64,000 nucleotides of DNA from Nitrospirota bacterium (lineage in GTDB: Bacteria > Nitrospirota > UBA9217): NCBI GenBank assembly GCA_963790205.1, contig CAWBNQ010000001.1, forward strand, positions 1,056,001-1,120,000, read 5' to 3'. The translations under genes and the position numbers were made by a program. The notes below the pieces were generated by a model. That model was not told the origin of the DNA. It did no database searches and was given only the letters and a program-made list of their open reading frames with translations. Every line of letters starts with the position of its first letter. The stretch's first letter is position 1. Shown here piece by piece: positions 33,981 through 52,917 of the stretch.

Positions 33981-34026
33981 ACCTTGCTACCTTGCGCATT
34001 TCTCATTTGGCGGCTATACTTTGAGC

Positions 34027-34680: not shown

Positions 34681-34726
34681 AAATCCTATTAGCCCAGGTA
34701 GAGCAAATGCAAAAGGAGCCAACGAC

Positions 34727-36670
34727 ATGTCTATTGTGAATTATAAAGCTGGCAATATCGTCTACCTGGGTAATGATCAATACGAAATCCTCAAACCGGT
34801 CAGCCTGAGGGACGTGCTCGCAAAGAGCGTCGCCACCGGCGTGCAAAAGGTCCTGCCTGTTTTAAGCCTCCGGTCCGCCCCCCTATCCGTAGAAAACGGC
34901 GATACCAAGACGCCGGTCGAACACGTGGACGAGGATCATTGGGACGTGGCTGTGCACCGTCACAAGATAATAAAACCGCTCCTTGAGGCGCCGCACCTTA
35001 CAAGGGCAATGGTCATCAAGGTTGCCAAGCAATGGGGCTTATCGCCTTCCACAGTTTATCGACACCTCAGCATGTTTAAGACAACCGGAACGGTAAGCGC
35101 CCTGGTTCCCAAGTTCGACTTAAGGGGGAAAGGTACGTCCAAACTCCCTCCGGGTACGCTTGCGATCGTAGAAGACATGAAAGATAACTTCTACCTCAAT
35201 CCGACGAAGGAACATCCGAAGCCTACGATTAAGGAGTCCTACTCTGAGATCAAGCAGCGTTGCAAAACGGCCGGCGTGAGGATCCCCGCCAAGGGAACCG
35301 TCTACTCCCTATTCGGGAAGATACCGGCGAGTGACCTGGCGAAACGCAGGGAAGGGAAGTCGGACAGCGGAAACAAGTTTTTGGCCAAACCTGGAAAGTT
35401 CCCGGGCGGCAATTACCCACTTGACGTTATCCAGATAGACCATACCCCTTTAAATGTGATGGTCGTCGATGAAATCTACAGGGAGTCGATCAAGCGACCT
35501 TATCTCACCGTCGCAATCGACGTCAACTCGAGAATGGTGTACGGCTACTATATAGCGCTGGAAAAACCCAGCTATTATTCCGTGTCCCAATGCATTACGA
35601 TCGGGATCCTGCCGAAGGATCAGTTCCTCCGATCCATAAGCGTTGAAGGGCAATGGGACATTTGGGGGAAGCCAAGGCTTATTTTAGCTGACAACGCTTG
35701 GGAATTTCAGGGCCAGGAGATGACCCGGGTCTGCGCGGATCACGACATTATTCTTGAGTGGACGCCGGTGAAAAAGCCAGAGTACAAAGCCCACATAGAG
35801 CGACTCTGCGGAACGCTAAGCGAGAAAATCCGCAGGCTGCAAGGAGCCACGTTCGCTTCGATAGAGGAGAGAGGCTCGTATGATTCGGAAGAAGAAGCCG
35901 TCATGACCATGGCAGAACTCGAGAAGTGGTTCGGCAACATGGTGGTGAACGAGTACCACAACGATATACACACTGGCATCGGCATGACCCCGAAACGAAA
36001 ATACGAGATGGGCATCCTTGGAGACGGGACAACGCCCGGGGTCGGCCTCCCCTCCGCGATCGAGGACGAGGATCAGCTTCGCATCAGCCTTTTACCCTTC
36101 GAGGAAAGAGTCGTCCAAAAGACCGGTCTATGGATAGAATGCATCCAATATTGGAGTGATACTCTCAAAGATTGGGCCAACGTTAAAAACAAAAAAAGTA
36201 AGAACGGCAAGTATATCATCAAAATAAACCCGAAGAGCATGAAAATAGTTCATTTTTACGACCCGGAACTGAAGAGATATTTTCCTGTGCCTTACAGGGA
36301 CATAAGCAAGCCGGACATGACGATTTGGGAATTAAGGGACGCCAAGGCGTACCTTAAAAAACAGGGCATCGAACACTATGACGAAGCGAAGATATTCGAA
36401 GCCGTCACAATAGGCAAGAAGATTGCTGCAGAAGCTACGGATAAAACGAAACAGGCGAGACGCAAGGCGGCAGCGAAGAATTTCCACGACAGGAAACTCA
36501 AGGATGAGCGAAGCAGCGTGGCCGCATCGCGTGGGAAAGATGAAAGCGGCATCGCCGCAGCGACCCCGGAGGAAAAGGCCATCGAATTAAGTCTCGATGA
36601 TCTTTATAGGGATATCAAGCCTTTTACGGGAATCAAAGTTATACCTAAAAAAGAGGATGACAAAAAATGA
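34727..36670 (+). CDS. tnsB: TnsB/TniA-like DDE transposase
   Basis: N-terminal HTH (LSPSTVYR), QIDHT, IDVNSRM, DNAWEF, KAHIER; Mu-transposase-like C-terminus. Confidence 0.93.
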   Translation: MSIVNYKAGNIVYLGNDQYEILKPVSLRDVLAKSVATGVQKVLPVLSLRSAPLSVENGDTKTPVEHVDEDHWDVAVHRHKIIKPLLEAPHLTRAMVIKVAKQWGLSPSTVYRHLSMFKTTGTVSALVPKFDLRGKGTSKLPPGTLAIVEDMKDNFYLNPTKEHPKPTIKESYSEIKQRCKTAGVRIPAKGTVYSLFGKIPASDLAKRREGKSDSGNKFLAKPGKFPGGNYPLDVIQIDHTPLNVMVVDEIYRESIKRPYLTVAIDVNSRMVYGYYIALEKPSYYSVSQCITIGILPKDQFLRSISVEGQWDIWGKPRLILADNAWEFQGQEMTRVCADHDIILEWTPVKKPEYKAHIERLCGTLSEKIRRLQGATFASIEERGSYDSEEEAVMTMAELEKWFGNMVVNEYHNDIHTGIGMTPKRKYEMGILGDGTTPGVGLPSAIEDEDQLRISLLPFEERVVQKTGLWIECIQYWSDTLKDWANVKNKKSKNGKYIIKINPKSMKIVHFYDPELKRYFPVPYRDISKPDMTIWELRDAKAYLKKQGIEHYDEAKIFEAVTIGKKIAAEATDKTKQARRKAAAKNFHDRKLKDERSSVAASRGKDESGIAAATPEEKAIELSLDDLYRDIKPFTGIKVIPKKEDDKK

Positions 36671-37581
36671 CGACGATTACTGATACACATATTGATACGC
36701 TTCTTCCTGAAACGAGACAGGTACTCGATCAAGACGATAAGGAACGGATTACGTACATCGAACAAGTGAAGTGGATTCCCTACCCTCAGGCAAATGGAAT
36801 TTTGGACAAGATGGAAGAGCTTTTAACCATACCCAAAAGGACGCGCATGCCATCTTTTTTACTAACAGCGGACAGTCACATGGGGAAGACGAGCATAGCG
36901 AAGGAGTTTGTTAGAAGGCATCCTCCTTCAAACGGCCTGCACGCGGATGCTCACCCCGTTATTTTAGTCGATGCTCCGGACGGACCAGATACTGGCTGGT
37001 TTTATGACAAGATATTCGAGTATCTGTCCGTGCCAGTGAGGACGAGGGACAAGGTCTCAAAAAAAGAAGCCGAGGTGAATTATTACTTTAAGAAGCTAGA
37101 CGTTAAAATGCTCATGGTCGACGAAATACACAATATCCTGAGCGGGCCTAGGACCAGGCAGAGCCTGTTTATGAATGCCTTGAAGGGAATGAACAACCGG
37201 TTGGAGATACCCATCGTCTTGATCGGCACACAAGACGCCAGGAGGGCGATCACTACCGACAACCAAATCAGCAGTAGATTCCCTCCTATTACCCTTTCCC
37301 GGTGGAAGATAGACAGGGATTATCTTTCGATGCTCGCAAGCATAGAGGTGACGCTGCCGCTCCGTAAGCCGTCTGTATTGGCCTCGCAGGACCTGGCGCC
37401 GGATATCCACGACCTCGCCGAGGGACTGACGGGAGAGATATTCTCTTTGATCAATCAAGCGGCGATTATTGCCATTAAAAGGAAAACTGAAAGAATTACG
37501 TACGCCGAAATCAAGGCATGTAACTTTATAAAACCGTCGCAACGAATTGCGGAGTCCACGTTGGCAGGGGTAAGTGAGTGA
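36667..37581 (+). CDS. tnsC: TnsC/TniB AAA+ ATPase
   Basis: WIPYP, Walker A ADSHMGKTS, Walker B MLMVDEIHN, QISSRF; overlaps tnsB stop. Confidence 0.92.
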   Translation: MTTITDTHIDTLLPETRQVLDQDDKERITYIEQVKWIPYPQANGILDKMEELLTIPKRTRMPSFLLTADSHMGKTSIAKEFVRRHPPSNGLHADAHPVILVDAPDGPDTGWFYDKIFEYLSVPVRTRDKVSKKEAEVNYYFKKLDVKMLMVDEIHNILSGPRTRQSLFMNALKGMNNRLEIPIVLIGTQDARRAITTDNQISSRFPPITLSRWKIDRDYLSMLASIEVTLPLRKPSVLASQDLAPDIHDLAEGLTGEIFSLINQAAIIAIKRKTERITYAEIKACNFIKPSQRIAESTLAGVSE

Positions 37582-38779
37582 TGTGATGCGTGGCGTTTAT
37601 CACGACCGGATTGCGGAGGGTAGATTTATTATTAGGTTGGACCCTCTCGAAGACGAGTTGCTGAGCTCGTGGCTGGTGCGCGAGGCTTATGCCCACATAA
37701 CCAGCCCGTTCACGTTTGTTAACCGGCACTTCCCTAAATTAAGTTATGTTTTTTGGACCAGGGATATTGACCTCTCAGCGGCTGACGAAATGCTCGATGT
37801 TTTATCGTTCAAGAGCGGCGTCAGCCGCGAATTACTTTATAAGCTCACCTTGAGATCGTATGAGAGGTATCTCGACGAACATATCGCAACTCATGCGGCC
37901 AACCACCTTATTCAACCCCTGGGTTACCTAAGCTACTATAAAGGAGCAAAGGCGAAACACGGGTTGAGTTTCTGTCCAATCTGCCTTCGTGAAGACGAAA
38001 CGCCATATTTCAGAAAAAAATGGAGACTCACGTTTTCTACCGCGTGCATCATTCATGGCTGTTTCTTGATGGATCGTTGCCAGAAATGCGGCTCGCCGGT
38101 GAAGTTTTACAGGAGTTACTTTGATGGGAGTTTTTCCTATTGTCATAGGTGTGGAGAGGATTACAGGAAAGCTATTCCGGAGCTTGTAGGACCTGATACG
38201 CAGGGGCTGCAAGCTATCAAGCAATTGTACAACATATTAGATTCAGGATGTTTTCAATTTGCAGACCGTTATATGTATTCGCCTCTCTTCTTCGATATAT
38301 TGCGGCAGATTATTAAAATCGCTTGTCATCGGAAGAAAGGTCGGGTTATTTTTGATAAAGATATAAGCACGGTTACTGGGGAACAAATTGGAAACCATTG
38401 CAGATGTAAATATATTTTTGACTATCCGTCAACAATACGCCATTCTATCTTTGCTGCGGCGATGAATGTGCTGCACCGATTCCCGGAAAGTCTTGCAAAC
38501 TTTTTCGAGGCCAACGGCTTGAAAAAGACTGATATCCTCAAGGACCTTAAGTATGTTCCTTATGAGTATTCCGCGATCGCAGATCAATTTGACTATGATG
38601 AAAAACCTATTGTGTTCGATGAAGTCAAAAGCGCGATCGGATACCTTAAAAGAAGAAATAAAAACGTTCACAAGCAGCAGGTTGATGAGTTAATGGGAGT
38701 GCGTCTTCATTTAAAAGGTCAAAGAAAAGATATTAGGAAGCTATTCAAGAAAAAAGGACGTTACCGCATTGCAGCGTGA
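37574..38779 (+). CDS. tniQ: TniQ/TnsD-family target selector with C-terminal extension
   Basis: DELLSSWL, FCPICL, W...C.IH..L.D.C..C, CHRC zinc-binding motifs; 401 aa. Confidence 0.9.
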   Translation: MSDVMRGVYHDRIAEGRFIIRLDPLEDELLSSWLVREAYAHITSPFTFVNRHFPKLSYVFWTRDIDLSAADEMLDVLSFKSGVSRELLYKLTLRSYERYLDEHIATHAANHLIQPLGYLSYYKGAKAKHGLSFCPICLREDETPYFRKKWRLTFSTACIIHGCFLMDRCQKCGSPVKFYRSYFDGSFSYCHRCGEDYRKAIPELVGPDTQGLQAIKQLYNILDSGCFQFADRYMYSPLFFDILRQIIKIACHRKKGRVIFDKDISTVTGEQIGNHCRCKYIFDYPSTIRHSIFAAAMNVLHRFPESLANFFEANGLKKTDILKDLKYVPYEYSAIADQFDYDEKPIVFDEVKSAIGYLKRRNKNVHKQQVDELMGVRLHLKGQRKDIRKLFKKKGRYRIAA

Positions 38780-39228
38780 CCTTTTTTACAGTAAATGCTG
38801 GCTCCATCACGGGCGTTTCTGAAAGGGTCACGCGTATCAGTCATGCATATCCGCAATCGTTCCGCTGTTTTTCCGATCCTGAATGTATTTCTCCACTTTT
38901 TATCCACTCCAAGAGTATTGGTATCGCACCTTCGTGCTACCAAAAATCTCCGTCACATATTTGCTTTCTTCTAACGATGACCATACGGTGGTCTTATTGT
39001 ATTAAGGAACCTTTATATCAAACAAGAAGGCACGGTTTTTATCTTCTTCTAATCAGAGCTACGATTTTGGAATTAACTTGCTGATAGGTAAACTATAGGT
39101 TTTATTTAATAAAGAGAAACAGGCAGGTGGTTAGATGTTTATCCAAGGAGCATAAAAAAATGATACTTGACAATTAGACGTAAATCGTACTATTATAGTA
39201 TAAATAAATACAAAAAAGAGAATTAATA

Positions 39229-39441
39229 ATGGATAATAAAATACAAAAAATAGTACATTTAGGTACAGAAAAACTGCAGGGAAGTAATCGGGTGCAATTG
39301 CCTGGCCCAGTTCTAAAAAATTTAGATCTTCAACATAAGCAGAAAATCGAGTTTTATTTGAATACAGCCACATGGGAAGTCATACTTAAGCCGGTTAAAA
39401 GAAGCGGAAATAACAATGACAAAGCAAAAAAAAATAAATAA
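39229..39441 (+). CDS. Small AbrB/MazE/SpoVT-like DNA-binding protein
   Basis: KLQGSNRVQLPGPVLKNLDL...IEFY...VILKP pattern; TTGACA-18 bp-TATTAT upstream. Confidence 0.55.
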   Translation: MDNKIQKIVHLGTEKLQGSNRVQLPGPVLKNLDLQHKQKIEFYLNTATWEVILKPVKRSGNNNDKAKKNK

Positions 39442-39528
39442 ACAGCATTTGGCAAGCGATCACACATGGAAAAACTCGTATCTGCTCTGTCCTTGGATAA
39501 GCCTGACCTGTAAAACGAGGCAATCATT

Positions 39529-40734
39529 ATGATAAAAATTGATCAGGAAAGTATCCAGTTGTTATCGAATGCTATTCATGATGTGCAGCCCGTAGGCGGC
39601 CTTACGCATTCGTTCTACAGGTATCCAGCTAGATTTTCTCCTCTTTTTGTGCGGGCTGCTATAAGGATATTTAGCAAGCCTGGTGAGGTTGTTTATGACC
39701 CCTTTATGGGAGGAGGGACTACAATTGTAGAAGCCGTAGCCTCTGGTCGACGCGCCATTGGAACTGACATAAATAGTCTAGCTGTATTTATTGCGAAGGT
39801 TAAAACGACACCGATAACGGATGACGACCTTTCGATAATGCGCTCTTGGCTTTTAAACTGTCAGGAGGGGCTTAATTTACATCGAGCGGCAATACGCGCG
39901 TCTGAATGGATTGAACTCGGATATCAAAGAAACATTAGTGGGAAAAAAACTTGGCCAATTAGGAAGATACTTGAACTGGCCTTAGCACAAATAAGCATCT
40001 TGCCAAAAACTAGCCAGCAGAACTTTGTGAGGTGCGTATTGCTGCGAACGGCACAGTGGGCGATTGATTGTAAAGAGGAACTGCCTTCTGCAAGTGAATT
40101 TCGACGAAAGTGTCTTCAGTTTTTTGAAGAAATGGCGGATGCTGCGAGCGAGCTTCGGCAATTAATTAAAAAAGGCAGAAAAGATTCGAACGGCTTAGCT
40201 TTTGAAAAGCCAATATGTTTGAATAGATCTGCCGCGGGGATTGAGACGGTGAAGAGCGTTAAAAAATATATACCACCACGATTAATATTAACATCACCAC
40301 CTTATCCCGGCGTTCATGTTCTCTATCATCGCTGGCAAGTTAATGGTCGAAAAGAAACACCCGCTCCATACTGGATTGCGGGCTCTTTAGATGGGAATGG
40401 TGCTGCTTATTATACTTTTGGAAGTAGAAGGGAAGAATATCTTCAGACATATTATAATCAAGCACGAACTGTATATTCCTCACTTGCTAAAATTGCGGAT
40501 AAAAAAACAACATTGATTCAACTTGTTGCTTTTTCTGATCCTTCCTGGCAGTTGCCAGCTTTCCTTGAAGTATTGCAACAAGCAGGATTTTGTGAAATAC
40601 AAGTACCTAATAATTTAAAAGATAATGACGAGCATGTTTGGCGCCAAGTGCCCAATCGCAAATTCTATGCAAGCCAAAAAGGTAGCATTACTGCAAGCAA
40701 GGAATTATTATTGATTCATAGACTTCGCTATTAA
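39529..40734 (+). CDS. Amino-DNA methyltransferase (SPPY motif, probably m4C; alpha-type motif order)
   Basis: H.FYRYPARF, motif I DPFMGGGTT before catalytic LTSPPY. Confidence 0.85.
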   Translation: MIKIDQESIQLLSNAIHDVQPVGGLTHSFYRYPARFSPLFVRAAIRIFSKPGEVVYDPFMGGGTTIVEAVASGRRAIGTDINSLAVFIAKVKTTPITDDDLSIMRSWLLNCQEGLNLHRAAIRASEWIELGYQRNISGKKTWPIRKILELALAQISILPKTSQQNFVRCVLLRTAQWAIDCKEELPSASEFRRKCLQFFEEMADAASELRQLIKKGRKDSNGLAFEKPICLNRSAAGIETVKSVKKYIPPRLILTSPPYPGVHVLYHRWQVNGRKETPAPYWIAGSLDGNGAAYYTFGSRREEYLQTYYNQARTVYSSLAKIADKKTTLIQLVAFSDPSWQLPAFLEVLQQAGFCEIQVPNNLKDNDEHVWRQVPNRKFYASQKGSITASKELLLIHRLRY

Positions 40735-40909
40735 TGGTCTCATAATCGACTCGACTCATCACGAGTTGAATATCGTTATTCTTGCGGCGATTCTGAGCGT
40801 GAAGCCAGCCTTCGTCATGCGTAATCTGCATTCCAGATAGGAACGGTCGGTAATAACGGCCGATGATATGTACAAACAATTGTGAGAATATTAATAGGCG
40901 TATTGTCCT

Positions 40910-43432
40910 TTATGTGGCTTCACCTGAAACATTTTTTGGGAGGCTACTTTCCAAATCCAAATCACCAAGTGAGTCAATCATGGGAACAATAATTGGAGCA
41001 ATTGCCTTGCTAACCATTTCAACTCTTTGCTCAATACTTTCCTGTGGAGAACGCTCTCTAGTTGTCTCCTTGTCGGCTTCAGTTTTTTTCCTATCTTGAA
41101 CGTCTTGCTGTAATAGCGCGAGGCCAACAAGTACTAGACCATATTTAAAGCGCGCTCTAATAATCTCGGGCTCTTCCTGCCCTGCGGATTTTAATTCCGT
41201 TTTTAAATATAAATTATCCATGTTAATAAAAAAATCATAGATATCAGGTCCGTCAGGATCATCTTCTGCCGCATCTTGTTTACCTGCATTTACGATTCTT
41301 AGTGCTGAATATTGGTCGAAATTATATTGAGACCATTCGGCTTCAAAAATTGGTATAATATTTGGCATTTGTATGCCAGAAGGGATCTCTCGCTCTTGTC
41401 CTTCCTTGTTACTCGGCGGCTTTGGGGGCCGAGGATTGCTAGGTTTAGGTAGCTTGTCAAGTTCCTCTAGTACGTTAACCGAGAACTTATTAATAAATGG
41501 TTCGATACGCGATGGATCGTTAACCCTAGATACAAACTGTAAAACTTGTCCAACGTAAACTCCCTCTGGTTGTTTAAAACTGAGAGTTGCAATGCCATTT
41601 TGAAGATTAACAATGCGATTATGGACTGGAACTGAAATATCCTCGCTTTGATCTAAAAGTGATAACTCAAATTCACCGGTATCTACATCACGGCTAAAGT
41701 AGTCATTTTTGGCATCCGTCTCGAACAAAATTCTACAACGCATATTTATATGACACCCTCGTTCTAATTCGACGGTGTAATTTTTCCCCTTAAATTTGAA
41801 ATAAGATGGAAATTTTTTTCCTTCATAAGGTTTTTCCTCAGACTGACTCTTTAACGTCTTAAAAGGGATAGAGAGACGCTTTCCTTGTAGAAACAGCGCT
41901 GAGAGGATGGGGGAGTGTTGTAAAAGATTTTCAAGAATATTCTCAAGAGGCTTTGAATCGTCGAGTTTAGCGGCTATCTCTTCCCGACGTCGGCGCTCTT
42001 TAAGCTCACGAAGACCATCATGGCTTTTAAGCAAGTCTTCAAGTGACTGTTCGATTTCGCTTTTTAGTTCCACACCGCTAAGACGATCTCGGCTATTCAT
42101 AAAGAGATCTTCACGTGAACGTCCACTCAACTTGCTGCAATCGATAGTAACGAGTAATGAATCGGCAAGATATGAAAGGCCAACTTTTTTTCTAATAAAA
42201 AAATCCGTCGTTAAATGACCATGAGTTTGTCCGTTCATCACGAAAATAATGCCTTCATTTTTTCGATAAGTTTCGGCCCGCCCCTTTTTAAATGCATAAA
42301 TCGTCACCATCATTTCTTCACCCATAACATTCATTTGTGCCGATGCTGGAAAGTCGGGTTCGAGATTTTCAGCCTTATCATCCTCCAACCTAACCTTAAT
42401 TCCGGTCAGTGTTGTGTCAAAACTGCCTGTATGGCCGGCGTACGCTCGGCATTCATGCAAACGAATTGGCAATGCAATATCTGGTAATAGGAGATCTATG
42501 CGGTATAAGATTCCGTCTTTCCGAAGGATATGAGATTTATAATATCCAGTCGCGGCATATTCAAATAATTTTATTAACGTACCCCAGGACGATTCTCGTG
42601 AATAGGCGTTTTGTCCATCAGGGAAAATGGGTAAAGATTTTGACTCGAAAGATAATATATTACCCCTATTAGAGCATTTATCGGCATCTATGGGGGCAAG
42701 ATAGGTATAAGTTGAACTACGACGATTTCCTTCCGGATCTTCTCTTCTAACGATTGTAAACCCCCACTGCATATCTCTAGACGTGCACGAATCGGTATTT
42801 AATAAGGCGGGATTGCGTTTGCTTACAATTAATTCTAAATTGCGTTTTCCACAAAACTTCAAGACGCCCGTACCACCCATGTTGAATTTGCCTTGAACAA
42901 ACGGAATTCTAAGCTTGTTAGAGCGATTAAGAGAAAGAAGCGTGTTTGGCATAGCGTCTGGAGTTTGCCCTTCACCACTGTCAGAAATAGTAAAGCAAAG
43001 ATTGCCTACCTTCGCAGTAGCACCTGTTGCAGCAAGTGTAATTCCACGTGAAATCTCTGTACGTTTCGACGGAGACCATTCTCTTATTAGTCCCGCATGT
43101 GCTGCGATCGGATTTATTGCCGATTCGAAGAAGAGAGCAACAGCCTCTCGTATTGTATGCGGGGCTTTTGACCCCTCAGGGTCTATTTTATGGACGAGAC
43201 ATTCATTCATGAGTCTAGCGTCTACGCTGTTTACTAGTTTTTCAACAAGTGCAGCGTCAGGCTTGCTTTGCTGATTGCCCATCGTGTTATAGTTACTTTC
43301 ATAGTCCCCGTAGAAACGCCAACATTCATGTCTATCCCAAAAACCTGCCTTTTGCAGAAGAGCAATAACTTCCGTTTCAGAATCAGACGTTATCAGCGTC
43401 AAACAAAGGGTTTTAAGTTCTTCGTTGTTCAT
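40910..43432 (-). CDS. Large GHKL (HATPase_c/MORC-like) ATPase domain protein
   Basis: N-box LVEKLVNSVDA, G1 ISDSGEGQ, G2 QGKFNMGGTG, later GTLIKL; long uncharacterised C-terminal half. Confidence 0.75.
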   Translation of the reverse strand: MNNEELKTLCLTLITSDSETEVIALLQKAGFWDRHECWRFYGDYESNYNTMGNQQSKPDAALVEKLVNSVDARLMNECLVHKIDPEGSKAPHTIREAVALFFESAINPIAAHAGLIREWSPSKRTEISRGITLAATGATAKVGNLCFTISDSGEGQTPDAMPNTLLSLNRSNKLRIPFVQGKFNMGGTGVLKFCGKRNLELIVSKRNPALLNTDSCTSRDMQWGFTIVRREDPEGNRRSSTYTYLAPIDADKCSNRGNILSFESKSLPIFPDGQNAYSRESSWGTLIKLFEYAATGYYKSHILRKDGILYRIDLLLPDIALPIRLHECRAYAGHTGSFDTTLTGIKVRLEDDKAENLEPDFPASAQMNVMGEEMMVTIYAFKKGRAETYRKNEGIIFVMNGQTHGHLTTDFFIRKKVGLSYLADSLLVTIDCSKLSGRSREDLFMNSRDRLSGVELKSEIEQSLEDLLKSHDGLRELKERRRREEIAAKLDDSKPLENILENLLQHSPILSALFLQGKRLSIPFKTLKSQSEEKPYEGKKFPSYFKFKGKNYTVELERGCHINMRCRILFETDAKNDYFSRDVDTGEFELSLLDQSEDISVPVHNRIVNLQNGIATLSFKQPEGVYVGQVLQFVSRVNDPSRIEPFINKFSVNVLEELDKLPKPSNPRPPKPPSNKEGQEREIPSGIQMPNIIPIFEAEWSQYNFDQYSALRIVNAGKQDAAEDDPDGPDIYDFFINMDNLYLKTELKSAGQEEPEIIRARFKYGLVLVGLALLQQDVQDRKKTEADKETTRERSPQESIEQRVEMVSKAIAPIIVPMIDSLGDLDLESSLPKNVSGEAT

Positions 43433-43466
43433 AATTTGTTTCTCCTTTTATGAGTAAACAATATCT

Positions 43467-43694
43467 TTACAATTCAAACTCGATTTTCTCATCCTGTCCC
43501 TTTCTTTCAAATCTTGCCTTAACATCATTAATAGCATTAGAAAGTGCTTTGTAAATTTTTCTGGCGTCCTCGTCAGTATAGCTATAATTACTTCTATTTG
43601 ATAAGTTTCCGATTAGTCTAATGTCATTTAATGCCCGTCTGACCCTCTTTTGTGCTAAATCTACAAACTTTTTTCTATCTCTTTCTTTACTCAT
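43467..43694 (-). CDS. Small helical conserved hypothetical protein, putative regulator
   Basis: KFVDLAQKRVRRAL..IRLIGNLSNRSNYSY; RBS GGAGG; 34 bp upstream of the GHKL gene. Confidence 0.75.
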   Translation of the reverse strand: MSKERDRKKFVDLAQKRVRRALNDIRLIGNLSNRSNYSYTDEDARKIYKALSNAINDVKARFERKGQDEKIEFEL

Positions 43695-43715
43695 AATATC
43701 CTCCAATTATGTAAG

Positions 43716-43752
43716 TAGTACATATTATAAATGTACTATGCATAAATGTCAA
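43716..43752 (-). promoter_or_regulatory. Consensus sigma70 promoter overlapped by an 8-bp inverted-repeat operator
   Basis: Minus strand TTGACA-17 bp-TATAAT (43752-43724); TAGTACAT-N7-ATGTACTA (43716-43738) straddles the -10 box. Confidence 0.8.
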
Positions 43753-43919
43753 CTATAAAGTAATATATATTTAATAAATGCAATTACGGCATATTACTGA
43801 ATTCTGAGCTGTATCCATAAATGGCTCTCATTGAGGCTTTATTATTTTGACAGCAGCGTTTTAAACTGATAAAGTCTCTGCGTATTCTATGCATAGCTGT
43901 CCTAAGGGAGATATAGTAA

Positions 43920-44603
43920 TTGGGACTAGGTGAACTATATTCACAAAACGTTTTTGCAGTCGCTCAAGAACTTAAGAAAAAGTATAAAGATTTTCAACAT
44001 TATAATAAAAAAAATCCTCTTGATGAGTTAATTTTTATTCTTTGTAGCATAAAGCGCAGTGAGCGAGTTTACTGTCGAGCCTTTAAATCTTTAAAGCAAG
44101 CGTATCCTTCATTCGCAAAACTTAGTCAAGCGTCTGAAGGAGAACTTGTCACACAGGTATCATGGGGCGGCTTGCAGAATTATAAAGCAAAGACACTTAG
44201 AGGTCTTATGAACGCAATAACTGTGAAATTCGGTCGGCCGACCCTTGCACCACTTTTCAACATGACGCAAGCTGAGTGCGAAAACTTTCTCTGTTCTCTT
44301 CCAGGCGTAGGGAAAAAAGTTGCCAGATGTGTAATGTTGTATTCACTCAATATGAAAGTTTATCCCGTGGATACACATTGCTGTAGAGTTTCACGGAGGA
44401 TAGGCTGGCTAAAGTCCACAACGAAAAATAAGTTCTGCTCATCTGTTGAGATGGACTCGCTACAAGAAATGATCCCTCCGAAATTGCGACTTTCATTGCA
44501 TGTTAACATGATTTCGTTAGGTAGAGATAAATGCTTAGCCCAATTTCCAAAATGTAGTAGTTGCCCAATATCAAGATACTGCCTTGAAGTTAGTACTTCT
44601 TAA
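43920..44603 (+). CDS. HhH-GPD DNA glycosylase, endonuclease III-like, [4Fe-4S]
   Basis: HhH LPGVGKKVA, PVDTH, C-x6-C-x2-C-x5-C. Confidence 0.9.
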   Translation: MGLGELYSQNVFAVAQELKKKYKDFQHYNKKNPLDELIFILCSIKRSERVYCRAFKSLKQAYPSFAKLSQASEGELVTQVSWGGLQNYKAKTLRGLMNAITVKFGRPTLAPLFNMTQAECENFLCSLPGVGKKVARCVMLYSLNMKVYPVDTHCCRVSRRIGWLKSTTKNKFCSSVEMDSLQEMIPPKLRLSLHVNMISLGRDKCLAQFPKCSSCPISRYCLEVSTS

Positions 44604-44960
44604 TATATGCAATATGAAAAAACCAATGAATTAATTAGGAGTACTCTATTAAGATAGTCTATTATGAATCGAATCAGATATCATCAATGTGAGTATCAGG
44701 ATATTCTGACAGAAATTACATATAGGGGTGGACTATGTGGCAGATAGAAGTCCGGCATGATGGTCTCAATAAATATCGTGTTATTAGAGGGAACGACAAA
44801 TACATTGTTGATCAAAAAGCGGAAGCCCAGAAAGCAGTCTGGGACGAGATGTGGCAGAAGAGGGTTGTGAGGGAACAACAGGCTCGCAAAACACAGTCGA
44901 AGCTTGACGAAGCTGAGGCCAGAACCAAGAATGCTTCCGATGCTATTGCAGCACTCACTA

Positions 44961-46061
44961 ATACAAACGCACTAAGTAATGTTACAAAGTCGCCTGACTT
45001 TGTGCTTTGACCACGAGTCAAGCGTCCTTTGGACCGTTGCCCAGATTGCGTCAAGGTTATCGAACCACCGGTTGGTAGTTGATTCATAGCGAATCTGGCG
45101 CCATATGCGTTCCTGCATATTCAAGGCAGGCTGATATGGTGGTAAGTACACAATCCGGAGTCGTTTATGCTTTCTGAGAAACTCCCGGATTGGGTCACCC
45201 CTATGCCAACGAGCTCGGTCAACATACAGCCAGATAGTGTAGCCACGAAGCTGGCTATAAAGGTGCCGCAGCACTTTGAGAAAACCTTCTCGGTTGCCAC
45301 GTTCCGTTTGGATGACGCCGGCACGAGCCAGAAGAGGAGCCACCCAGCCGGAAACATTCAAACGTTTCTGATGCTGGCTGGTTGTCGGCACTTTCAACCG
45401 TTTCCCGATGAGCGCCCAGCCGCGGCCAAGCCGAGGGTGCAGAGTAAAACCGCATTCGTCCTGAAAAACCACAGTTTCTTTAGGACCCAGCGTTTTGAGT
45501 TTTTTTTAGGCTCCTGGCAAACTTCTTCGCGTCTTCTGCCTTTGCCTGGAGATAAACGTGATTGGCTCGCTTTAACCGATACCCAAGTTGATGCATCCAG
45601 TATTGGGCCTGACGGACTTTCAGCTTTATCCCGAACTGGCGCTGTAAATGAGTTGCCAAAGTGGGGCCATCCCATCGAATACGATTTAAGCCGAACTTCT
45701 GGGGCGATTCCTCCAGTTGAAGCTCTAGCTGAGCTACGATCTTAGGAGTCATCCGAACTGGACGGCCTGACTGCTTTTTCGGGACAAGGGCTTCTACTCC
45801 GTCCTTGTTTACCGCCCGCGTCCAGCGGTTTACGTTCATCCGGGTCTGGCCTAGGACTTCTGAGATCCACCCCGGTCGTTGACCCTCCATTACCAAGAGG
45901 AGGGTAGCTATCTTTATGCCGATCCAAGCTCCTGGCACCTTCTCTGCGAGGGCCAGCAATTGCTCTTTGGACACCTTTATTGGGCTTGCAGGGGATGTTT
46001 TCATGCCCCCAGAATAACATAAAGTATGGTTAAAGTGTAACAATATTTACTGCGTTTGTAT
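44961..46061 (-). mobile_element. IS630-family insertion sequence, copy 1 (1101 bp)
   Basis: 26-bp IRs ATACAAACGCACTAAGTAATGTTACA / ATACAAACGCAGTAAATATTGTTACA, TA duplication; HTH ORF (46004-45480) plus DDE ORF (FQDE, VDRARWH, LNMQERIW, ends 44972). Confidence 0.95.
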
Positions 46062-46288
46062 TAATATATTAAAACATGGCCTGAAAGTTGACGACGCGAT
46101 CAAATGGGAATCCCTCAAGGACAGGTCCAATTTTCCAAAACCCAAGCCGGATTCTCCTGCCCCGTTGAATCCTCGTCCGGTACCTAAAGAAACAGATCCG
46201 CAATTACGACCAAGGATCGGTTTTTTCGAACGGTTTATAGCGTCCAGGCGTGAGAAGCGAATCAACGAGGCCAAGCAGCGTTTCACTA

Positions 46289-47389
46289 ATACAAACGCAC
46301 TAAGTAATGTTACAAAGTCGCCTGACTTTGTGCTTTGACCACGAGTCAAGCGTCCTTTGGACCGTTGCCCAGATTGCGTCAAGGTTATCGAACCACCGGT
46401 TGGTGGTTGATTCGTAGCGAATCTGTCGCCATATCCGTTCCTGCATATTCAAAGCAGGCTGATAGGGAGGTAAGTACACAACCCGGAGTCGTTTATGCTT
46501 TCGGAGGAACTCCCGGATCGGATCACCCCTATGCCAACGAGCTCGGTCAACATACAGCCAGATAGTGTAGCCACGAAGCTGGCTATAAAGGTGCCGCAGC
46601 GCTTTGAGAAAGCCTTCTCGGTTGCCGCGTTCCGTTTGGATCACTCCGGCACGACCCAGAAGAGGAGCCACCCAGCCGGAAACATTCAAACGTTTCTGAT
46701 GCTGGCTGGTTGTCGGAACTTTGTGTCGTTTTCCGATAAGCGCCCAGACGCGCCCAAGTCGAGGGTGCAGAGTAAAGCCGCATTCGTCCTGAAAAACCAC
46801 GGTTTCTTTAGGACCCAGCGTTTTGAGTTTTTTTTAGGCTCCTGGCGAATTTCTTCGCGTCTTCTGCCTTCGCCTGGAGATAAACGTGATTTGCACGTTT
46901 TAACCGATACCCAAGTTGATGCATCCAGTATTGGGCCTGACGGACTTTCAGCTTTATCCCGAACCGGCGCTGTAAATGGGTTGCCAAAGTGGGGCCATCC
47001 CATCGAACACGATTTAAGCCGAACTTCTGGGGCGATTCCTCCAGTTGAAGCTCTAGCTGAGCTACAATCTTAGGGGTCATCCGAACTGGACGGCCTGACT
47101 GCTTTTTCGGGACAAGGGCTTCTACTCCGTCCTTGTTTACCGCCCGCGTCCAGCGGTTTACGTTCATCCGGGTCTGGCCGAGGACCTCTGAGATCCACCC
47201 CGGTCGTTGCCCTTCCAGCACCAAGAGAAGGGTTGCTATCTTAATGCCGATCCAAGCTCCTGGCACCTTCTCTGCAAGTGCCAGTAATTGCTCTTTGGAC
47301 ACCTTGATTGGGCTTATAGGGGCTGTTTTCATGCCCCCAGCATAACATAAACGAAGATTAAAGTGTAACAATATTTACTGCGTTTGTAT
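46289..47389 (-). mobile_element. IS630-family insertion sequence, copy 2 (1101 bp, diverged isoform)
   Basis: Same IRs and TA duplication; split transposase 47332-46300; many substitutions relative to copy 1. Confidence 0.95.
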
Positions 47390-48699
47390 TAGTAATTACG
47401 CAGCTTGGGTGAAAGAAAAGGAAAAAGTCGATCACGAGAATACGGACCGAGAAAAAACCTACCAAGGCTATTTAGAAAAATGGGAATCTGAGAAAAAAGC
47501 GTTTCTTGAAAAACAAAGGGAAACTAACAATGCTGTCGATAAGCGGAAGGAATTGTATAACAGCAAGGCACCGGACGCGGTTGTCGACTACTGCGAGCTC
47601 GTTTTATCCAATTCCGAATATCCTGACTATTTCCCCAAAGAGTTCGATTTGGACTACAATACTGAGACAAAGATCCTGATCGTAGAGTACTCTCTTCCTT
47701 CGGTTGATGACATCCCGAAAGTCAAAGAGGCCAAATACGTCAAATCCCGGAATGAGCTTGTTGAATCTTTACTATCGGAATCGGTCGTTAATAAAATATA
47801 CGATAGTCTGATTTATCAAATTGCTCTGCGGACAATACATGAGCTTTATGAGGCAGATACTGTGACAGCTCTACCCTCCATTGTTTTTAATGGCTGGGTA
47901 GAATCTATTGACAAAGCTACCGGGAAAAAAGTAAACGCATGTATCATCTCCGTACAGGCTATGCGAGAAGAATTTCTTGCCATCAACTTGGATAATGTCG
48001 ATCCAAAGGCGTGTTTTAAGATTCTCAAGGGAGTCGGCAGCTCCAAGCTCCATAGTTTGACTCCGATCGCGCCGATCTTGAATATCAACCGCGACGACAA
48101 ACGGTTTATTTCCTCGTATCCGGTGGTCGATGGTCTGGACGAGTCAAGCAATTTAGCGGCAATGGATTGGGAGGATTTTGAGCATCTGATTCGTGAGGTA
48201 TTCGAAAAAGAGTTTTCACAGTCCGGCGGAGAAGTAAAAGTGACGCAGGCGAGTCGAGACGGAGGGGTCGATGCAATCGCGTTCGACCCTGACCCTATCC
48301 GCGGGGGGAAAATCGTGATCCAAGCCAAGCGTTACACGAATACGGTCGGCGTTTCAGCGGTACGCGATCTTTACGGGACTGTTATGAACGAAGGAGCAAC
48401 CAAGGGTATTCTTGTGACTACGGCGGATTATGGTCCGGATGCTTATGATTTTGCAAAAAGTAAACCGCTGACCTTACTTAACGGCAGCAACCTTTTGCAC
48501 TTACTAGAAAAGCATGGCCACAAAGCCACTATCAACTTGAAAGCTGCCAAACAGATACTCGCGGAACAGGAGAAGGCGAATTGAGTAAGCAATTGACATT
48601 TGGTCATTCATCGTTAAAACTTGCGATGAATGACTCAGTAAATATATTAGGGGGAATAGGCTTACTATCGCACAATTAGGTTGAGAGAGGAGTCCTGCC

Positions 48700-49035
48700 A
48701 TGTCTGATGAAGAGAATAAGTTAGTCGGACCAAAAACGTTTGCACCGCCAGCAAAGGGCGATGATGAAATAGATTTCTCATCATTTTTCCAATATTTGCA
48801 AAGTCAGCAGGGACATGAGATGGCCTCTCGCGTGATCGGTTTGATAGAAGATGTTAAAAAGGCGGCAGTCGATAAGAGCTACTCAAATGTAAAGTTTAAT
48901 CGCTGGATGGAAGCTGGCATCATTGTCGTTGTTATTACAGCCACGGTTTTGCTGAGCATTCTAGATAAGCTCACACCTACCGTTGGTATTTTGTTCGGTT
49001 CTATTGTCGGATATTTCTTTGGTAAAAATAAATAG
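48700..49035 (+). CDS. Small hypothetical protein with two C-terminal TM helices
   Basis: RBS AGGAG; hydrophobic IIVVVITATVLLSIL and VGILFGSIVGYFFG. Confidence 0.7.
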   Translation: MSDEENKLVGPKTFAPPAKGDDEIDFSSFFQYLQSQQGHEMASRVIGLIEDVKKAAVDKSYSNVKFNRWMEAGIIVVVITATVLLSILDKLTPTVGILFGSIVGYFFGKNK

Positions 49036-49067
49036 AGAATTGACCTTATGCCCATTAATTCTACAGC

Positions 49068-50834
49068 TCAAATACAGTTCTTATCGGATATTCTTCTCAA
49101 CAGCTCTTCGCACCATCTGACATAGAAATTATCTTCTTTTGAGGATGGATGTATTTTTGTGTCAAATGTTATTCCTATTTCTTTGAGGTCATTAATGGTA
49201 TCCTCATGCTGTACTTCATCTACAAACCTTTTAACCACCATCATCGCATGCTTCTGGGGATGGGGCAATTGCTCATCTGCAAATAGTAAATACGTACCGG
49301 GGCCATTCGGAAGTCCAGTGTGATCAATTTCAACCAGACAGATATTTTTGCCAGAGTAATTAAAAATCGTTGTTACAAACGTGCGTCTGCTGTCATGACT
49401 TTTATTATAACTTTCCTTGAGAGACAGTAATCCTCTCGCCTTCCGGGTTTTTTTCAATGGGATATCTCGGATGAGAGACATCTCAAAGTTGTGGACATCT
49501 GCATGCTCGTTGAGAAATCCTGTCATATAAAAAAAATCTGCGATGTAGAAATCTTCTCTGCTTCCATTGTTTGGTTCAGTCTGCTTATCTGAGACATCCT
49601 TATCTAGTTCATTTTCTCTTTGATCATTCTCCTGCGATTCCATAGATGCCGGCCTAGTGTCGCTAGCTCCATCAGTGCCTTGCCCGATAACACTTATCTC
49701 GACAGCCGGCCCCATGAGCCTGATAATGGGGAGAACCTCATTCTTGACGGTCGGTTGCTTTCCCTCTACAGTTCCATCGATGATTTTCATTCGCAAGATA
49801 TGTGTATTTGTAATTTTTGTCGAAGGTTTAATCGAAATGGGACTTAAGCGTGAGGTCGGTTTTTTATCGTTTAGTTGTTTCTTTGTAGCCCTTTTTTTAA
49901 TTACGACTACATTACCGTCGCTGTTTTGTTGTTTGTCTGGGTTTGTTTTCTTAGGGAAAGAGATCGTGTCAAAATCAAATTGGCTGTCATCGTCCAGGAT
50001 TTCGAATACGAGTACTTTGTCTTTGCGTAGAGCGGTGTCTTGTAACCAAAGTCCTCTGATTTGCATATGGATTGTTTGCCAAATAGGAAAATCGATTTCG
50101 AGGGGAACGATATTTGACAAGTCGCCCTGTAGCTCCATATTTTTTTTCATTGCCAAAAGGCTTTTATGAACGGCGAGCCACCTTGCGTATGCAAATGGAT
50201 TCTCTTTAAATCTGACAATATGCGGCGCGTCACTTTTGGAGGCGCCTGGCTTCAAATGAACGAAAGCAGTACGTTTTTTGCGATCAAGCTTGATGTCCTC
50301 ATAAAGACCGTCAAGTTTCATCGAAAAAATCTGCCTTCTCATTGAGCTGGAAGTGAAATAATAACATGCGCCGATGACGGCGCATGGAAAAATAATCAGT
50401 TGGTAGTCGTCTTCGAATACAACACAACGCTGGTTCTTATTATACTTTGAAAAATCAAAGTAGCCGTTCATTGTGCGAAACCATTGATTGAGTTTATATT
50501 CGTCGTCTGATAAAACATCCGATATTTTAACAATATGGTTATTATCAGTGGCTTCTATGGTAATGGGATGAATTTCGCCGAGAGGAGGGATTGATTTTAC
50601 CAGTTTTGTGTCCTTGTAATGTTGGCCGATAGCATAATGTCCGTGAAGAAATTCCGGGAAAATGTCCTCGGTTAAGTATATCCCCGAGTCTATATCTTGA
50701 AACAATACCTTGTAAAAGTTGTTGCCTGCGGTCGCATTGATTCCCTGAATACAAAGAAGACGGAATGTCCGATGCTTATGCTTATCACTGGACATCTTGG
50801 GGGTTTTTATGGAATCCAGGTCGATTTGAGTCAT
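49068..50834 (-). CDS. TnsE-like protein (putative second target selector)
   Basis: 588 aa inside a Tn7-like element; N-domain IIFPCAVIG..YYF.SS, acidic linker, C-domain RR.F...LVEID...LL...KIH...W...L recalls TnsE architecture (pattern recognition only). Confidence 0.55.
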   Translation of the reverse strand: MTQIDLDSIKTPKMSSDKHKHRTFRLLCIQGINATAGNNFYKVLFQDIDSGIYLTEDIFPEFLHGHYAIGQHYKDTKLVKSIPPLGEIHPITIEATDNNHIVKISDVLSDDEYKLNQWFRTMNGYFDFSKYNKNQRCVVFEDDYQLIIFPCAVIGACYYFTSSSMRRQIFSMKLDGLYEDIKLDRKKRTAFVHLKPGASKSDAPHIVRFKENPFAYARWLAVHKSLLAMKKNMELQGDLSNIVPLEIDFPIWQTIHMQIRGLWLQDTALRKDKVLVFEILDDDSQFDFDTISFPKKTNPDKQQNSDGNVVVIKKRATKKQLNDKKPTSRLSPISIKPSTKITNTHILRMKIIDGTVEGKQPTVKNEVLPIIRLMGPAVEISVIGQGTDGASDTRPASMESQENDQRENELDKDVSDKQTEPNNGSREDFYIADFFYMTGFLNEHADVHNFEMSLIRDIPLKKTRKARGLLSLKESYNKSHDSRRTFVTTIFNYSGKNICLVEIDHTGLPNGPGTYLLFADEQLPHPQKHAMMVVKRFVDEVQHEDTINDLKEIGITFDTKIHPSSKEDNFYVRWCEELLRRISDKNCI

Positions 50835-50936
50835 AATTGAAAAAATTGGTTTTCGGTGGGCATATTATAATAATATTGTAGCCATTGTAGCTAGTTTATT
50901 ATCAGAAATTTTATCGTTATTACAAAATCACTTTTT

Positions 50937-52064
50937 TTAAATAATCAACCGAATTAAATGAATAAGTCTTCGTAATATATTAGAAGAATCATTGACACAA
51001 TAGACCGATACTTGCTTCCGTACTTTAAACCCATCTTCAATGCTTCCTCTTGTACATTTATGCTCGCCTACTTTTCCCAAGGTTGGTTTAAGGCAAGGAG
51101 GATCACAATTAAAGAAATATACTATTATGTGCAATAAAAGTGCGCCGAATGTAGTTAAATAAAATCCTATGAAGAACCAAAGAATTAGGCAATAATAAAA
51201 TATGTCGTGTTTGAAGCCATAATGGCGTGCACAGCAAATATATATGCATAGGCAAATAACACCAATACAACAATCGACCCACTTAGGATACTTTAAATAA
51301 TCATCACCTTCGTTTGTATAAATAATGAAACCGCTTTTTTCAAAAAGCTTTCTGGTTTTCCATAAATAATAATGCAGTAATTTCTTTACAAAAAAAGCGC
51401 TTGTCAGAATAAATATCGGGAAACTAAATTCCCAATTGGCCGAAAGCGTGGATTGATCCAATTCAAAAAAATGATGTACTACGAAAAACCCGAATATTGA
51501 GTTTAGTACCATTAGCCATATAGATGCCCAATATAGCGGTCCGAATTGGTCGGGAATCACCAGGTCGGGATCTAACTTATTATTAAGGCCGATATATTCT
51601 TCTTTGACAAAAGAATCATGAATAAGGTTTTGATATTTGTCTTTAAAGACCTTAAGATTGTTGTCGCCACTGTTAAATATTTTTTCAATCACTGCCGCTC
51701 TACCTTGAATGTACCTAAAAAGGAATCCATGCGATAAAATGTATTCGGATAACAGCCAGAGGATTATGTTACCTACAACACAAATAGCGAAGGCAAAATA
51801 GACCTCATTGCCGTCTATATGTAAAGACGTTAACGCCGACGAAAAATTGTAGTCTCCAATTAATGGAAATGTGCCGAAATTAGTTAGCCGTTTGAAGTCC
51901 TCAATAATGAATTTATAGGCTAGTGCAATAGCTGAAATTGCTACAATGAAATGCCATTTTGCTTTGAGTAGGTCGTCACTTATCTTGTTTAAATCATCCA
52001 GTAAACTTTTATGTTCGCTGATTAAAAATTCTCCAGACTTATCCCACATTTTATTCTCCGACAT
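50937..52064 (-). CDS. AT-rich multi-pass membrane hypothetical protein
   Basis: 375-aa ORF with about 6 hydrophobic segments and an N-terminal EFLISEHKSL helix. Confidence 0.7.
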   Translation of the reverse strand: MSENKMWDKSGEFLISEHKSLLDDLNKISDDLLKAKWHFIVAISAIALAYKFIIEDFKRLTNFGTFPLIGDYNFSSALTSLHIDGNEVYFAFAICVVGNIILWLLSEYILSHGFLFRYIQGRAAVIEKIFNSGDNNLKVFKDKYQNLIHDSFVKEEYIGLNNKLDPDLVIPDQFGPLYWASIWLMVLNSIFGFFVVHHFFELDQSTLSANWEFSFPIFILTSAFFVKKLLHYYLWKTRKLFEKSGFIIYTNEGDDYLKYPKWVDCCIGVICLCIYICCARHYGFKHDIFYYCLILWFFIGFYLTTFGALLLHIIVYFFNCDPPCLKPTLGKVGEHKCTRGSIEDGFKVRKQVSVYCVNDSSNILRRLIHLIRLII

Positions 52065-52245
52065 TTGATCGACACTTTCCTGATAGCGATAATTCAGTCA
52101 TTGTAAAATGTTATTTCCCCCGATTCAGTAACACGGGGGACTGAAAATACGTTCTTAGCATATACTGGCCTGCATATATACTTATAAGTGGGCGTTCTCA
52201 CCGTCTTGGCCGAGCCTCTCGGTCGCTGCTGCACAACGTTATTGC

Positions 52246-52917
52246 TCAAACACGATCAAGCCAGTTCAGGTCGAAAAGGACGGGAAACCCGCAGGACTGG
52301 ATCGAGCAGAAGATCGGGAAGTCCTTCTCCGGGCAGAACACGAAAAGAACCTCCCTATGCTTGAATGAGAAGTCGCCCGGATAGCGCCACTCTCGTTCGT
52401 GCGTCGCATCGAAGCTCTCGGTAATGATGTTCACGAACGGCTGCAGATTATAAGGAATGAAGTTGTATACCCTGCGTTCAAATCGCTCGCCGGCAAATGT
52501 AACTTTCTCCTTGAGCAGGGATTCTCTGATGTTAAGGCACGGGTTTGCGCCACGCTCAAACAAGAAGTCCCGGTCAAATGCAAGCCCATACTGCGCATGG
52601 AAGACATCTCGGTGCGCCTTCAGCCCTGACAGGGTACTTTCAGTAAAGCAGACTGCATGCGAGTCGATCGGACCGTCAAACTCACCAGTTTCGGGGTCGA
52701 ACACGTTGGGGTTCACCCTGCTGTACCACCCCACTGCGGATGCCCCGAGGTAGGGCCTTGGGGGGGTGCTCCCTATGGCCAAGATTGAAAGAAGGTCGCT
52801 CTTGGCCTCTGCGTCGCTTAGGCCTTCGTTCTGACGGATCAGATGCGTCAGTAGAAAGGAGCAGTCGGAGCTAAGGCGAGCCAGTTCTTGAGCGGTTGCT
52901 GCATTGGTCTTCGACAT
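52246..52917 (-). CDS. AbiGi-like (abortive-infection-associated, ART-like fold) protein
   Basis: LTHL.R, AVCFTE, YGLAF...GANP, HEREWR motifs. Confidence 0.7.
   Translation of the reverse strand: MSKTNAATAQELARLSSDCSFLLTHLIRQNEGLSDAEAKSDLLSILAIGSTPPRPYLGASAVGWYSRVNPNVFDPETGEFDGPIDSHAVCFTESTLSGLKAHRDVFHAQYGLAFDRDFLFERGANPCLNIRESLLKEKVTFAGERFERRVYNFIPYNLQPFVNIITESFDATHEREWRYPGDFSFKHREVLFVFCPEKDFPIFCSIQSCGFPVLFDLNWLDRV

Follow-up and report, generated by a model that had tools for sequence, protein, structure and literature searches.

Introduction

A run of six adjacent genes in a genome of the Nitrospirota raises the question of which of them belong to one system and what that system does. The stretch of DNA analysed here (the window) comprises 64,000 nucleotides of assembly GCA_963790205.1 (contig CAWBNQ010000001.1, positions 1,056,001 to 1,120,000), and the six open reading frames (ORFs) lie at window positions 39229-48584, inside a transposon. 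A preliminary description had given their positions and strands correctly and had proposed that a DNA methyltransferase, a GHKL ATPase, a small regulator, a [4Fe-4S] DNA glycosylase and an Mrr nuclease act together as one defence system. Comparison with several sets of related loci shows that the conserved unit is the SPPY methyltransferase and the 840-residue ATPase, each with a small gene upstream, and not one five-part system. The pair is a mobile two-gene module without a recurrent nuclease gene, is likely to be an undescribed defence against foreign DNA and, judged from gene content and order, appears to resemble the restriction operons predicted for paraMORC proteins.

Methyltransferase and ATPase as a conserved pair

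The first core gene (39529..40734, forward strand) encodes an amino DNA methyltransferase of 401 amino acids, and the second (40910..43432, reverse strand) encodes the ATPase. A genome scan for the ATPase gave 267 matches, the best 80 of which define 79 loci. The methyltransferase family adjoins the ATPase in 65 of these 79 loci, which come from many phyla; the methyltransferase is convergent and downstream in 57 of the 65, as in the window, upstream in seven and overlapping in one. Among the 14 loci lacking it, six ATPases are at a contig edge, six are partial or interrupted, and two are intact. The reverse search, in which a methyltransferase profile was run against 221 genomes of one phylum, found five loci in four genomes (one locus being the search centre), with a convergent ATPase in 5/5, including ATPases that are only 27-31% identical. 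Pairwise identities of the two proteins are also correlated over 57 loci (Spearman 0.41, 0 of 999 permutations).

No other neighbour, nuclease or otherwise, recurs in the 79 loci beyond the methyltransferase, small regulators and the genes that occupy the slot upstream of the ATPase. The glycosylase, both outer pieces of the Mrr gene and the 70-residue gene that precedes the methyltransferase are found in 0/79. A recurrent cluster with a superfamily II (SFII) helicase or nuclease is likewise absent from these loci, and such genes are sporadic in the 30 sampled genomes described below. The earlier proposal that methyltransferase, ATPase and small gene form a conserved module is thus borne out by the linkage in both directions and by the map of the upstream slot, and so is the claim that a type II nuclease cognate to the methyltransferase is lacking, as no nuclease recurs beside it in the 79 ATPase loci or in the five reverse-search loci (1.5-kb flanks).

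Sequence motifs and predicted fold of the ATPase

The ATPase itself has no match in Pfam, PADLOC, NCBIfam, PHROGs or the sequences of the PDB, and neither it nor the small proteins of the locus matched anything in PADLOC-DB 2.0.0 (2023 library) at E <= 0.01. The combination of genes had not been recognised as a named system, and the lack of a family name is borne out for the ATPase. Its assignment to the GHKL superfamily, already made in the preliminary description, is supported by conserved motifs, by weak Pfam matches in relatives and by the predicted fold. The GHKL motifs E64/N68/D71, D151/G153/G155 and G181/G186/G189 are conserved at 90-100% in 120 sequences, and HATPase_c_3 or HATPase_c matches at E <= 0.1 occur in 14 of 35 relatives, two of which reach the cut-off.

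An AlphaFold2 model of the protein (predicted local distance difference test, pLDDT, 91.2; predicted template modelling score, pTM, 0.90) suggests a GHKL+S5 module (residues ~43-487), an immunoglobulin (Ig)-like beta-sandwich (540-657), a proline-rich linker and an alpha/beta-plus-helical C-terminal domain (~690-830). Residues 43-487 are structurally closest to TRAP1 (Z 15.4; root-mean-square deviation 4.6, 301 aligned) and GRP94 (15.3), followed by SMCHD1 (13.1), MORC3 (12.8) and MutL (11.7); they also align with ParE and topo VI-B, and GHKL+S5 proteins overall score Z 10-15. Foldseek placed topo VI-B, GyrB and Hsp90 at the top ranks for the model (E about 1e-10), and residues 540-657 resemble Ig-like sandwiches at Z 7-8. 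When folded alone (pLDDT 87.8), the C-terminal domain matched nothing at E <= 0.001 or Z >= 8, and the rows listed included no nuclease, which is not proof of absence; a profile search with this domain likewise yielded no clear match. The weak top Foldseek row was the C-terminal domain of HtpG (E 0.21, probability 0.15), and across 86 C-terminal domains the only positions to reach 90% conservation are P11, W21, N58, D60 and L143.

The family is large: 3,950 proteins among 8,000 scored belong to it, and a clustering at 50% identity gave 2,400 clusters. Its matches in the ESM Atlas were limited to clusters without a name, a minority of the labels being HATPase_c_3, and residues 520-840 had none. 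Compared with single GyrB-, MutL- and HtpG-like sequences of the host, the ATPase profile gave no significant match, and only one neighbouring GHKL protein was detected (E 3.6e-4). A phage collection contained no match to the ATPase, whereas six distant ATPases were found on plasmids, where no methyltransferase (E 1e-15) or glycosylase (E 1e-20) was detected; a single-sequence query found no ATPase in forty relatives of the host.

Methyltransferase chemistry, small genes and transcriptional layout

In the methyltransferase, the S-adenosylmethionine (SAM) motif DPFMGGGT precedes the catalytic SPPY, and the protein matches Pfam N6_N4_Mtase (1.3e-13) as well as PADLOC MTase_II. Both the SAM and the catalytic motifs are intact: SPPY is kept in 60/60 full-length relatives, and G61, G62 and S256-Y259 are invariant in 31 sequences. 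The product of the reaction is probably N4-methylcytosine.

Judged from its promoter-like sites, the block consists of three units, namely the 70-residue gene with the methyltransferase (+39167), the 75-residue gene with the ATPase (-43752) and the glycosylase onward (+43847). These sites are matches to the sigma70 consensus only, and the scan gave 14 of them against 16.3 in shuffled sequence, such that it is by score that the 11/12 site (39167..39196, forward strand) and the perfect 12/12 site (43716..43752, reverse strand) stand out; the third (43847..43875, forward strand) matches at 10/12 with an extended -10 box.

Each core gene is preceded by a small gene. The 70-residue ORF ahead of the methyltransferase (39229..39441, forward strand) likely encodes a small regulator of that gene, as its position suggests. 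It had been described as AbrB-like; the ORF is real, but its product has no match, to AbrB or otherwise, in Pfam, PADLOC, NCBIfam or PHROGs. The counterpart position in relatives is occupied by an HTH_17-type gene (a cluster of eight loci) or by a ribbon-helix-helix (RHH) gene (five loci). On the other arm, the ATPase transcription unit is headed by a gene for a protein of 75 amino acids (43467..43694, reverse strand), which begins at an ATG after GGAGG, whereas the listing of 79 amino acids begins at an upstream TTG. The 12/12 promoter of this unit has a palindrome, GTACAT-N7-ATGTAC, surrounding its -10 box, which makes it a candidate operator, and the 75-residue protein is likely to be an autoregulator. 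The palindrome is exact in L010 and in the distant locus L088 (loci are referred to by such numbers) and has one mismatch in L049; it is absent from 21 of the 24 small-gene loci examined and, taken by itself, is no better than shuffles within the window (4 of 30).

The family of the 75-residue protein occurs in 13 of the 79 ATPase loci according to tblastn and in 15 according to clustering. The slot directly upstream of the ATPase is nearly always filled by one of five alternatives that take turns: a protein of 390 amino acids without an assigned family (23 loci), an AbrB-PIN pair (~16), the 75-residue family (15), and further unassigned proteins of 214 (10) and 144 amino acids (3). Examples of the families of ~390, 214 and 144 amino acids, none of which has an assignment in Pfam, PHROGs or PADLOC, are L003:8787-9983, L009:9268-9942 and L015:9475-9909, respectively. 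The AbrB-PIN genes form a toxin-antitoxin pair with the ATPase right behind it, as in L001, L002, L007, L008, L019 and about 11 more loci.

The wider ATPase family and its link to Ssp genes

Even samples from five phyla, with the search centres excluded, contained the ATPase family in 32 of 1,700 genomes, 30 of which were mapped after two with short fragments had been dropped. A DNA methyltransferase is adjacent in 13 of the 30 and within 3 kb in one more, and genes of the Ssp type are adjacent in six, so that the ATPase lies beside a DNA-marking enzyme (Dcm, other amino-methylases or SspBCD phosphorothioation) in 20/30. Five of the six plasmid loci were opened, three with Ssp-type genes, one with a methyltransferase and one with neither; in loci from a viral collection the neighbours were Ssp genes, Dam alongside a DndB-like gene, or Dcm together with the 75-residue gene.

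Relatives of the ATPase adjoin sspBCD in 10 loci, and in L084 and L221 sspBCD is directly convergent on the ATPase. PADLOC was run on 66 of the 103 ORFs listed for the 10 Ssp-linked loci and found SspA-D matches in nine of them, with no SspE, SspF, SspG or SspH match among the same 66 ORFs. A genome-wide search for SspE with four PADLOC models, one of which was silent in controls and none of which covered SspFGH, gave 0/5 genomes. This absence is weak evidence because most sspBCD clusters lack SspE anyway; 83.9% of them have neither SspE nor SspFGH according to the available part of the work by Wang et al. (PMC8092258). In a tree of 95 ATPase sequences, built without split or short genes and read without branch support values, the methyltransferase family of the window marks one large clade that includes the window ATPase, and 8 of the 9 Ssp-linked copies form a group. 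In L239, L241 and L242, all from one genus, sspD and the ATPase are separated by unnamed genes that vary between loci, one of them encoding a ParB-like domain.

Proposed mechanism and competing explanations

The reading that we prefer, at a probability of about 0.5, has the methyltransferase labelling self DNA and the ATPase acting on unmarked DNA as an ATP-gated dimer without a cutting domain. The methyltransferase would modify host DNA, likely to N4-methylcytosine; the ATPase, a predicted clamp of the Hsp90/MORC type, would bind and close on invading DNA that lacks the mark and would block replication or expression of that DNA, with an anti-phage effect. The small gene ahead of each arm would encode a transcriptional regulator that times both arms, like the controller proteins of type II systems.

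Several observations weigh against this scheme. In structure the ATPase is closest to Hsp90 chaperones rather than to DNA clamps. The 79 loci, drawn from the best 80 of 267 matches, are biased towards one clade, and the correlated identities of the two proteins could be explained by shared descent alone. Neither partner is nearby in 10 of the 30 sampled genomes, in several of which the locus is broken or at a contig end, and three of the six sampled genomes with Ssp genes belong to one genus. Some Ssp loci also contain other candidate effectors, such as an HNH protein (L227), DUF262 with SIR2 (L090) and a second GHKL protein (L084, L226). Intact ATPases without a modification gene in view occur in L031, L033, L222, L223, L231, L232 and L236, which is the chief evidence against a strict coupling and implies that the ATPase is either harmless without the mark or able to work alone.

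An extension of the scheme, which we put forward only tentatively, is that the ATPase family would restrict DNA in general without a nuclease, as a clamp of the Hsp90 type that would have been coupled lineage by lineage to four DNA marks, namely amino-methylation by two enzyme classes, 5-methylcytosine and Ssp phosphorothioation. Such an effector would represent a novel mode of restricting foreign DNA.

The structural matches can also be read at face value, the ATPase being a dedicated chaperone of the Hsp90 type that loads or activates the neighbouring DNA-modifying enzyme, such that the output of the pair would be the DNA mark itself, either epigenetic or anti-restriction. The top matches from the Hsp90 family, the best (weak) match of the C-terminal domain to HtpG, the lack of a recognised nuclease and partners that are always modifying enzymes fit this explanation, but we regard it as unlikely. 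The partners to be served have unrelated folds (alpha and beta amino-methylases, Dcm and SspBCD), and relatives of these enzymes work without such a helper. Moreover, the two genes are mostly convergent, separately transcribed and provided with small upstream genes of their own, which fits a timed restriction-modification pair better than an operon of chaperone and client.

Restriction by cleavage, with the Ig-like or C-terminal domain concealing a nuclease or some other toxic activity, would turn the pair into a restriction-modification or abortive-infection system. The polar residues T572, D573, R581, D639, N737, D739 and N740, all outside the ATPase module, are conserved at 88-98% and could form such a site, and MutL, paraMORC3 and Tiamat have C-terminal nucleases according to the accessible parts of their descriptions (PMC2292703; bioRxiv 10.64898/2026.09.30.754977). 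Given that residues 540-657 resemble Ig-like sandwiches and that so few C-terminal positions reach 90% conservation, this explanation is improbable; the C-terminal fold search, with neither a nuclease among the matches listed nor any row at the thresholds given above, is no proof against it.

The ATPase might finally be a stand-alone defence or selfish gene that gathers in defence islands, the pairing with the methyltransferase being one successful cassette. The ten sampled genomes with no partner nearby, the two intact loci of 79 that lack one and the different neighbours in different lineages are in line with this possibility, which nevertheless appears quite improbable: the linkage is reciprocal across phyla at 27-70% identity and has been kept despite the change of gene order in the seven loci with the methyltransferase upstream, and the neighbours are specifically DNA-modifying enzymes.

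Glycosylase and Mrr gene as separate cargo

The glycosylase (43920..44603, forward strand; 227 amino acids) is a [4Fe-4S] HhH-GPD protein similar to endonuclease III (HhH-GPD 8.7e-8), in which K133, D151, C205, C212 and C215 are invariant and C221 is conserved at 90% or more in 64 sequences. It scores below the curated cut-off of TIGR01083 nth, and its nearest solved structures are EndoIII-1 and EndoIII-3 (4unf, 4uob). Its neighbourhoods were analysed in 80 metagenome loci, the best of 251, with clusters of methyltransferases named partly from motifs and nucleases from Pfam. Of the 80 loci, 47 show a DNA methyltransferase and 28 a restriction-type nuclease, with 25 showing both; the nucleases include XamI, TdeIII, Eco29kI, MvaI/BcnI, EcoO109I, EcoRII, Bpu10I, BglII, SacI, McrBC-like and GmrSD types. 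The ATPase is in only one of the 80, L136, together with the methyltransferase and the small gene and in a different gene order. The glycosylase is best read as an accessory gene appended to restriction and defence islands, outside the conserved core. By analogy with the Dag enzymes it may attack modified phage bases; alternatively, it may act in repair at methylated sites. Against this reading, L136 and the relatives of ATPase and glycosylase with longest contigs of the same size could reflect a local cassette of four genes among the closest relatives. A glycosylase serving as the restriction enzyme of one particular methyltransferase family was also considered and rejected, given the reciprocal counts (0/79 and 1/80) and the 25 loci of 80 that hold both a methyltransferase and a nuclease.

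Some other features of the glycosylase loci are worth recording. Islands frequently terminate with the glycosylase, immediately followed by a conserved housekeeping gene of ~700 codons that we take to be oligopeptidase A-like (13 loci, L117-L161), suggesting an insertion hotspot. It directly follows a DUF499 ATPase gene in L104, L106, L109 and L144, and Methyltransf_35 genes adjoin it in L138, L147 and L162; in L138 and L147 they are next to an HATPase_c_3 protein and Dcm-like genes, an arrangement that represents a different methylase-linked GHKL cassette.

The last gene of the block (44735..48584, forward strand) is a type IV nuclease gene of the Mrr type (Pfam Mrr_cat PF04471, 3.3e-32; PADLOC mREase_IV, 2.8e-68) that is present in three pieces and would be a frame of 547 codons apart from two insertions. 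Both insertions are IS630-type elements of 1105 bp on the reverse strand: the first (44959..46063) has DDE_3 and HTH (helix-turn-helix) matches and a TA duplication, and the second (46287..47391) is 94% identical to it. Since the frame is whole apart from these insertions and the first element has seven other full-length copies in the genome at 99.8% identity or more, the gene was recently broken. Mrr was found in 0/79 and 0/93 loci, with L215-L245 lying outside the search. The Mrr gene is therefore independent, inactivated cargo, and it and the glycosylase were separately acquired by the same island.

The five-part system, in which the glycosylase/AP (apurinic/apyrimidinic)-lyase would replace or assist a restriction enzyme and Mrr would take part, is very improbable even though the genes are adjacent, L136 holds four of them, and two ATPase and two glycosylase relatives have longest contigs of the same size (7,091 and 8,933 bp), which suggests putative shared contigs, because the glycosylase is found in 0/79 ATPase loci and 0/31 further mapped regions, the ATPase in 1/80 glycosylase loci and Mrr in 0/79 and 0/93 loci. 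Moreover, 28 of the 80 glycosylase loci have a nuclease of their own, accompanied in 25 by a methyltransferase; a separate promoter-like site precedes the glycosylase, and Mrr is broken twice.

Host transposon and further cargo

The block is carried by a transposon of ~20 kb (33802..53808, forward strand) with tnsA, tnsB-like, tniB and tniQ genes, whose inverted ends lie near 33802 and 53808; the 5-mers flanking it agree at 4/5 positions, consistent with a target-site duplication. The GC content is 37-41% across 39-45 kb of the window, compared with 52-62% in the flanks (26-33 kb and 54-64 kb). The transposon was considered as a regular companion of the module and rejected, as its four genes are found in 0/79 ATPase loci.

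It interrupts a small membrane-protein gene (33652-33801 and 53809-53883) that presumably resembles DUF2892. Near its right end, a gene for a protein of 588 amino acids (49068-50834, reverse strand) yielded only nine relatives, none of them named, and its product presumably resembles a TnsE-like targeting protein. Further cargo ORFs at 48700-49035 (forward strand, 111 amino acids), 50937-52064 (reverse strand, 375 amino acids) and 52246-52917 (reverse strand, 223 amino acids) have no significant family match, the last showing a faint PADLOC match to AbiGi (E 0.007), and a short ORF just within the right end (53185-53475) may, we assume, encode an antitoxin of the Phd/YefM type.

Comparison with known systems

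The literature searched, which did not extend to supplementary member lists, contained no description of this ATPase family: MORC, HSP90, HATPase and MutL are not mentioned in PMC10853773 and PMC12839542, nor GHKL or MORC in the available part of PMC9519451, and the HEF_HK family, as far as it is described in the accessible text of PMC8011034, is a different one.

Several known systems share individual features with the module. In type II restriction-modification systems regulated by a controller, a small gene is followed by the effector gene, on which the methyltransferase gene converges. The module has the same layout, including a palindrome over the promoter; however, the position of the effector is taken by an ATPase without a recognised nuclease, and the small gene matches no controller family. 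The Hsp90 family (HtpG, TRAP1 and GRP94) provides the best structural matches over residues 43-486 and the weak match of the C-terminal domain, and by Z score the ATPase is closer to Hsp90 than to MORC. On the other hand, identity is 13-16%, and the window ATPase has an extra Ig-like domain, is mobile and patchy in distribution and is tied to DNA-modifying genes; the host genome has its own HtpG-like gene.

SspABCD-SspE and SspABCD-SspFGH, as described in the accessible part of PMC8092258, couple NTPase effectors to a DNA mark, and relatives of the ATPase lie next to sspBCD, although the ATPase has no PADLOC match to SspE, SspF, SspG or SspH and the window copy is paired with a methyltransferase rather than with phosphorothioation. 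If the tentative extension to a general effector is true, the family would supply one of the missing partners for the roughly 84% of sspBCD clusters without SspE or SspFGH. Tiamat is an anti-phage GHL ATPase that is often found near methyltransferases, but in the available text (bioRxiv 10.64898/2026.09.30.754977) it has a C-terminal PD-(D/E)xK nuclease and methylase neighbours only together with a helicase, neither of which was recognised in the window system. The glycosylase, for its part, shares the Lys/Asp pair, the Fe-S cysteines and the setting in defence islands with the Dag defence glycosylases and the endonuclease III branch, as far as these are described in the accessible part of bioRxiv 10.1101/2025.10.29.685425.

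The prokaryotic MORC and paraMORC1-5 proteins, GHKL ATPases that Iyer, Abhiman and Aravind assigned to predicted restriction operons in 2008 (PMC2292703, as far as available), share the GHKL+S5 module, the patchy spread across phyla and the DNA methylase neighbours, and a minority of their neighbourhoods contain a methylase without a helicase. Unlike these proteins, the window ATPase lacks recurrent neighbours of the SFII helicase, Vsr or nuclease kind, possesses an Ig-like and a C-terminal domain absent from the part of that description available, and is linked to Ssp genes. For the restriction-fold nuclease or TIR domain at the C terminus of paraMORC3/4, the C-terminal model of the window ATPase showed no counterpart at E <= 0.001 or Z >= 8. 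The MORC motif GhXhhpXXRhl is also not matched in the stretch G394-H404, where Gln402 (99% conserved) is found at the apparent Arg position, an equivalence drawn by eye. If our reading is true, a family of thousands of proteins would restrict DNA through an ATPase of the Hsp90/MORC type without a recognisable nuclease, and the pair would make it possible to examine, with no more than two genes, whether MORC-like ATPases of prokaryotes read DNA methylation, as was proposed in 2008.

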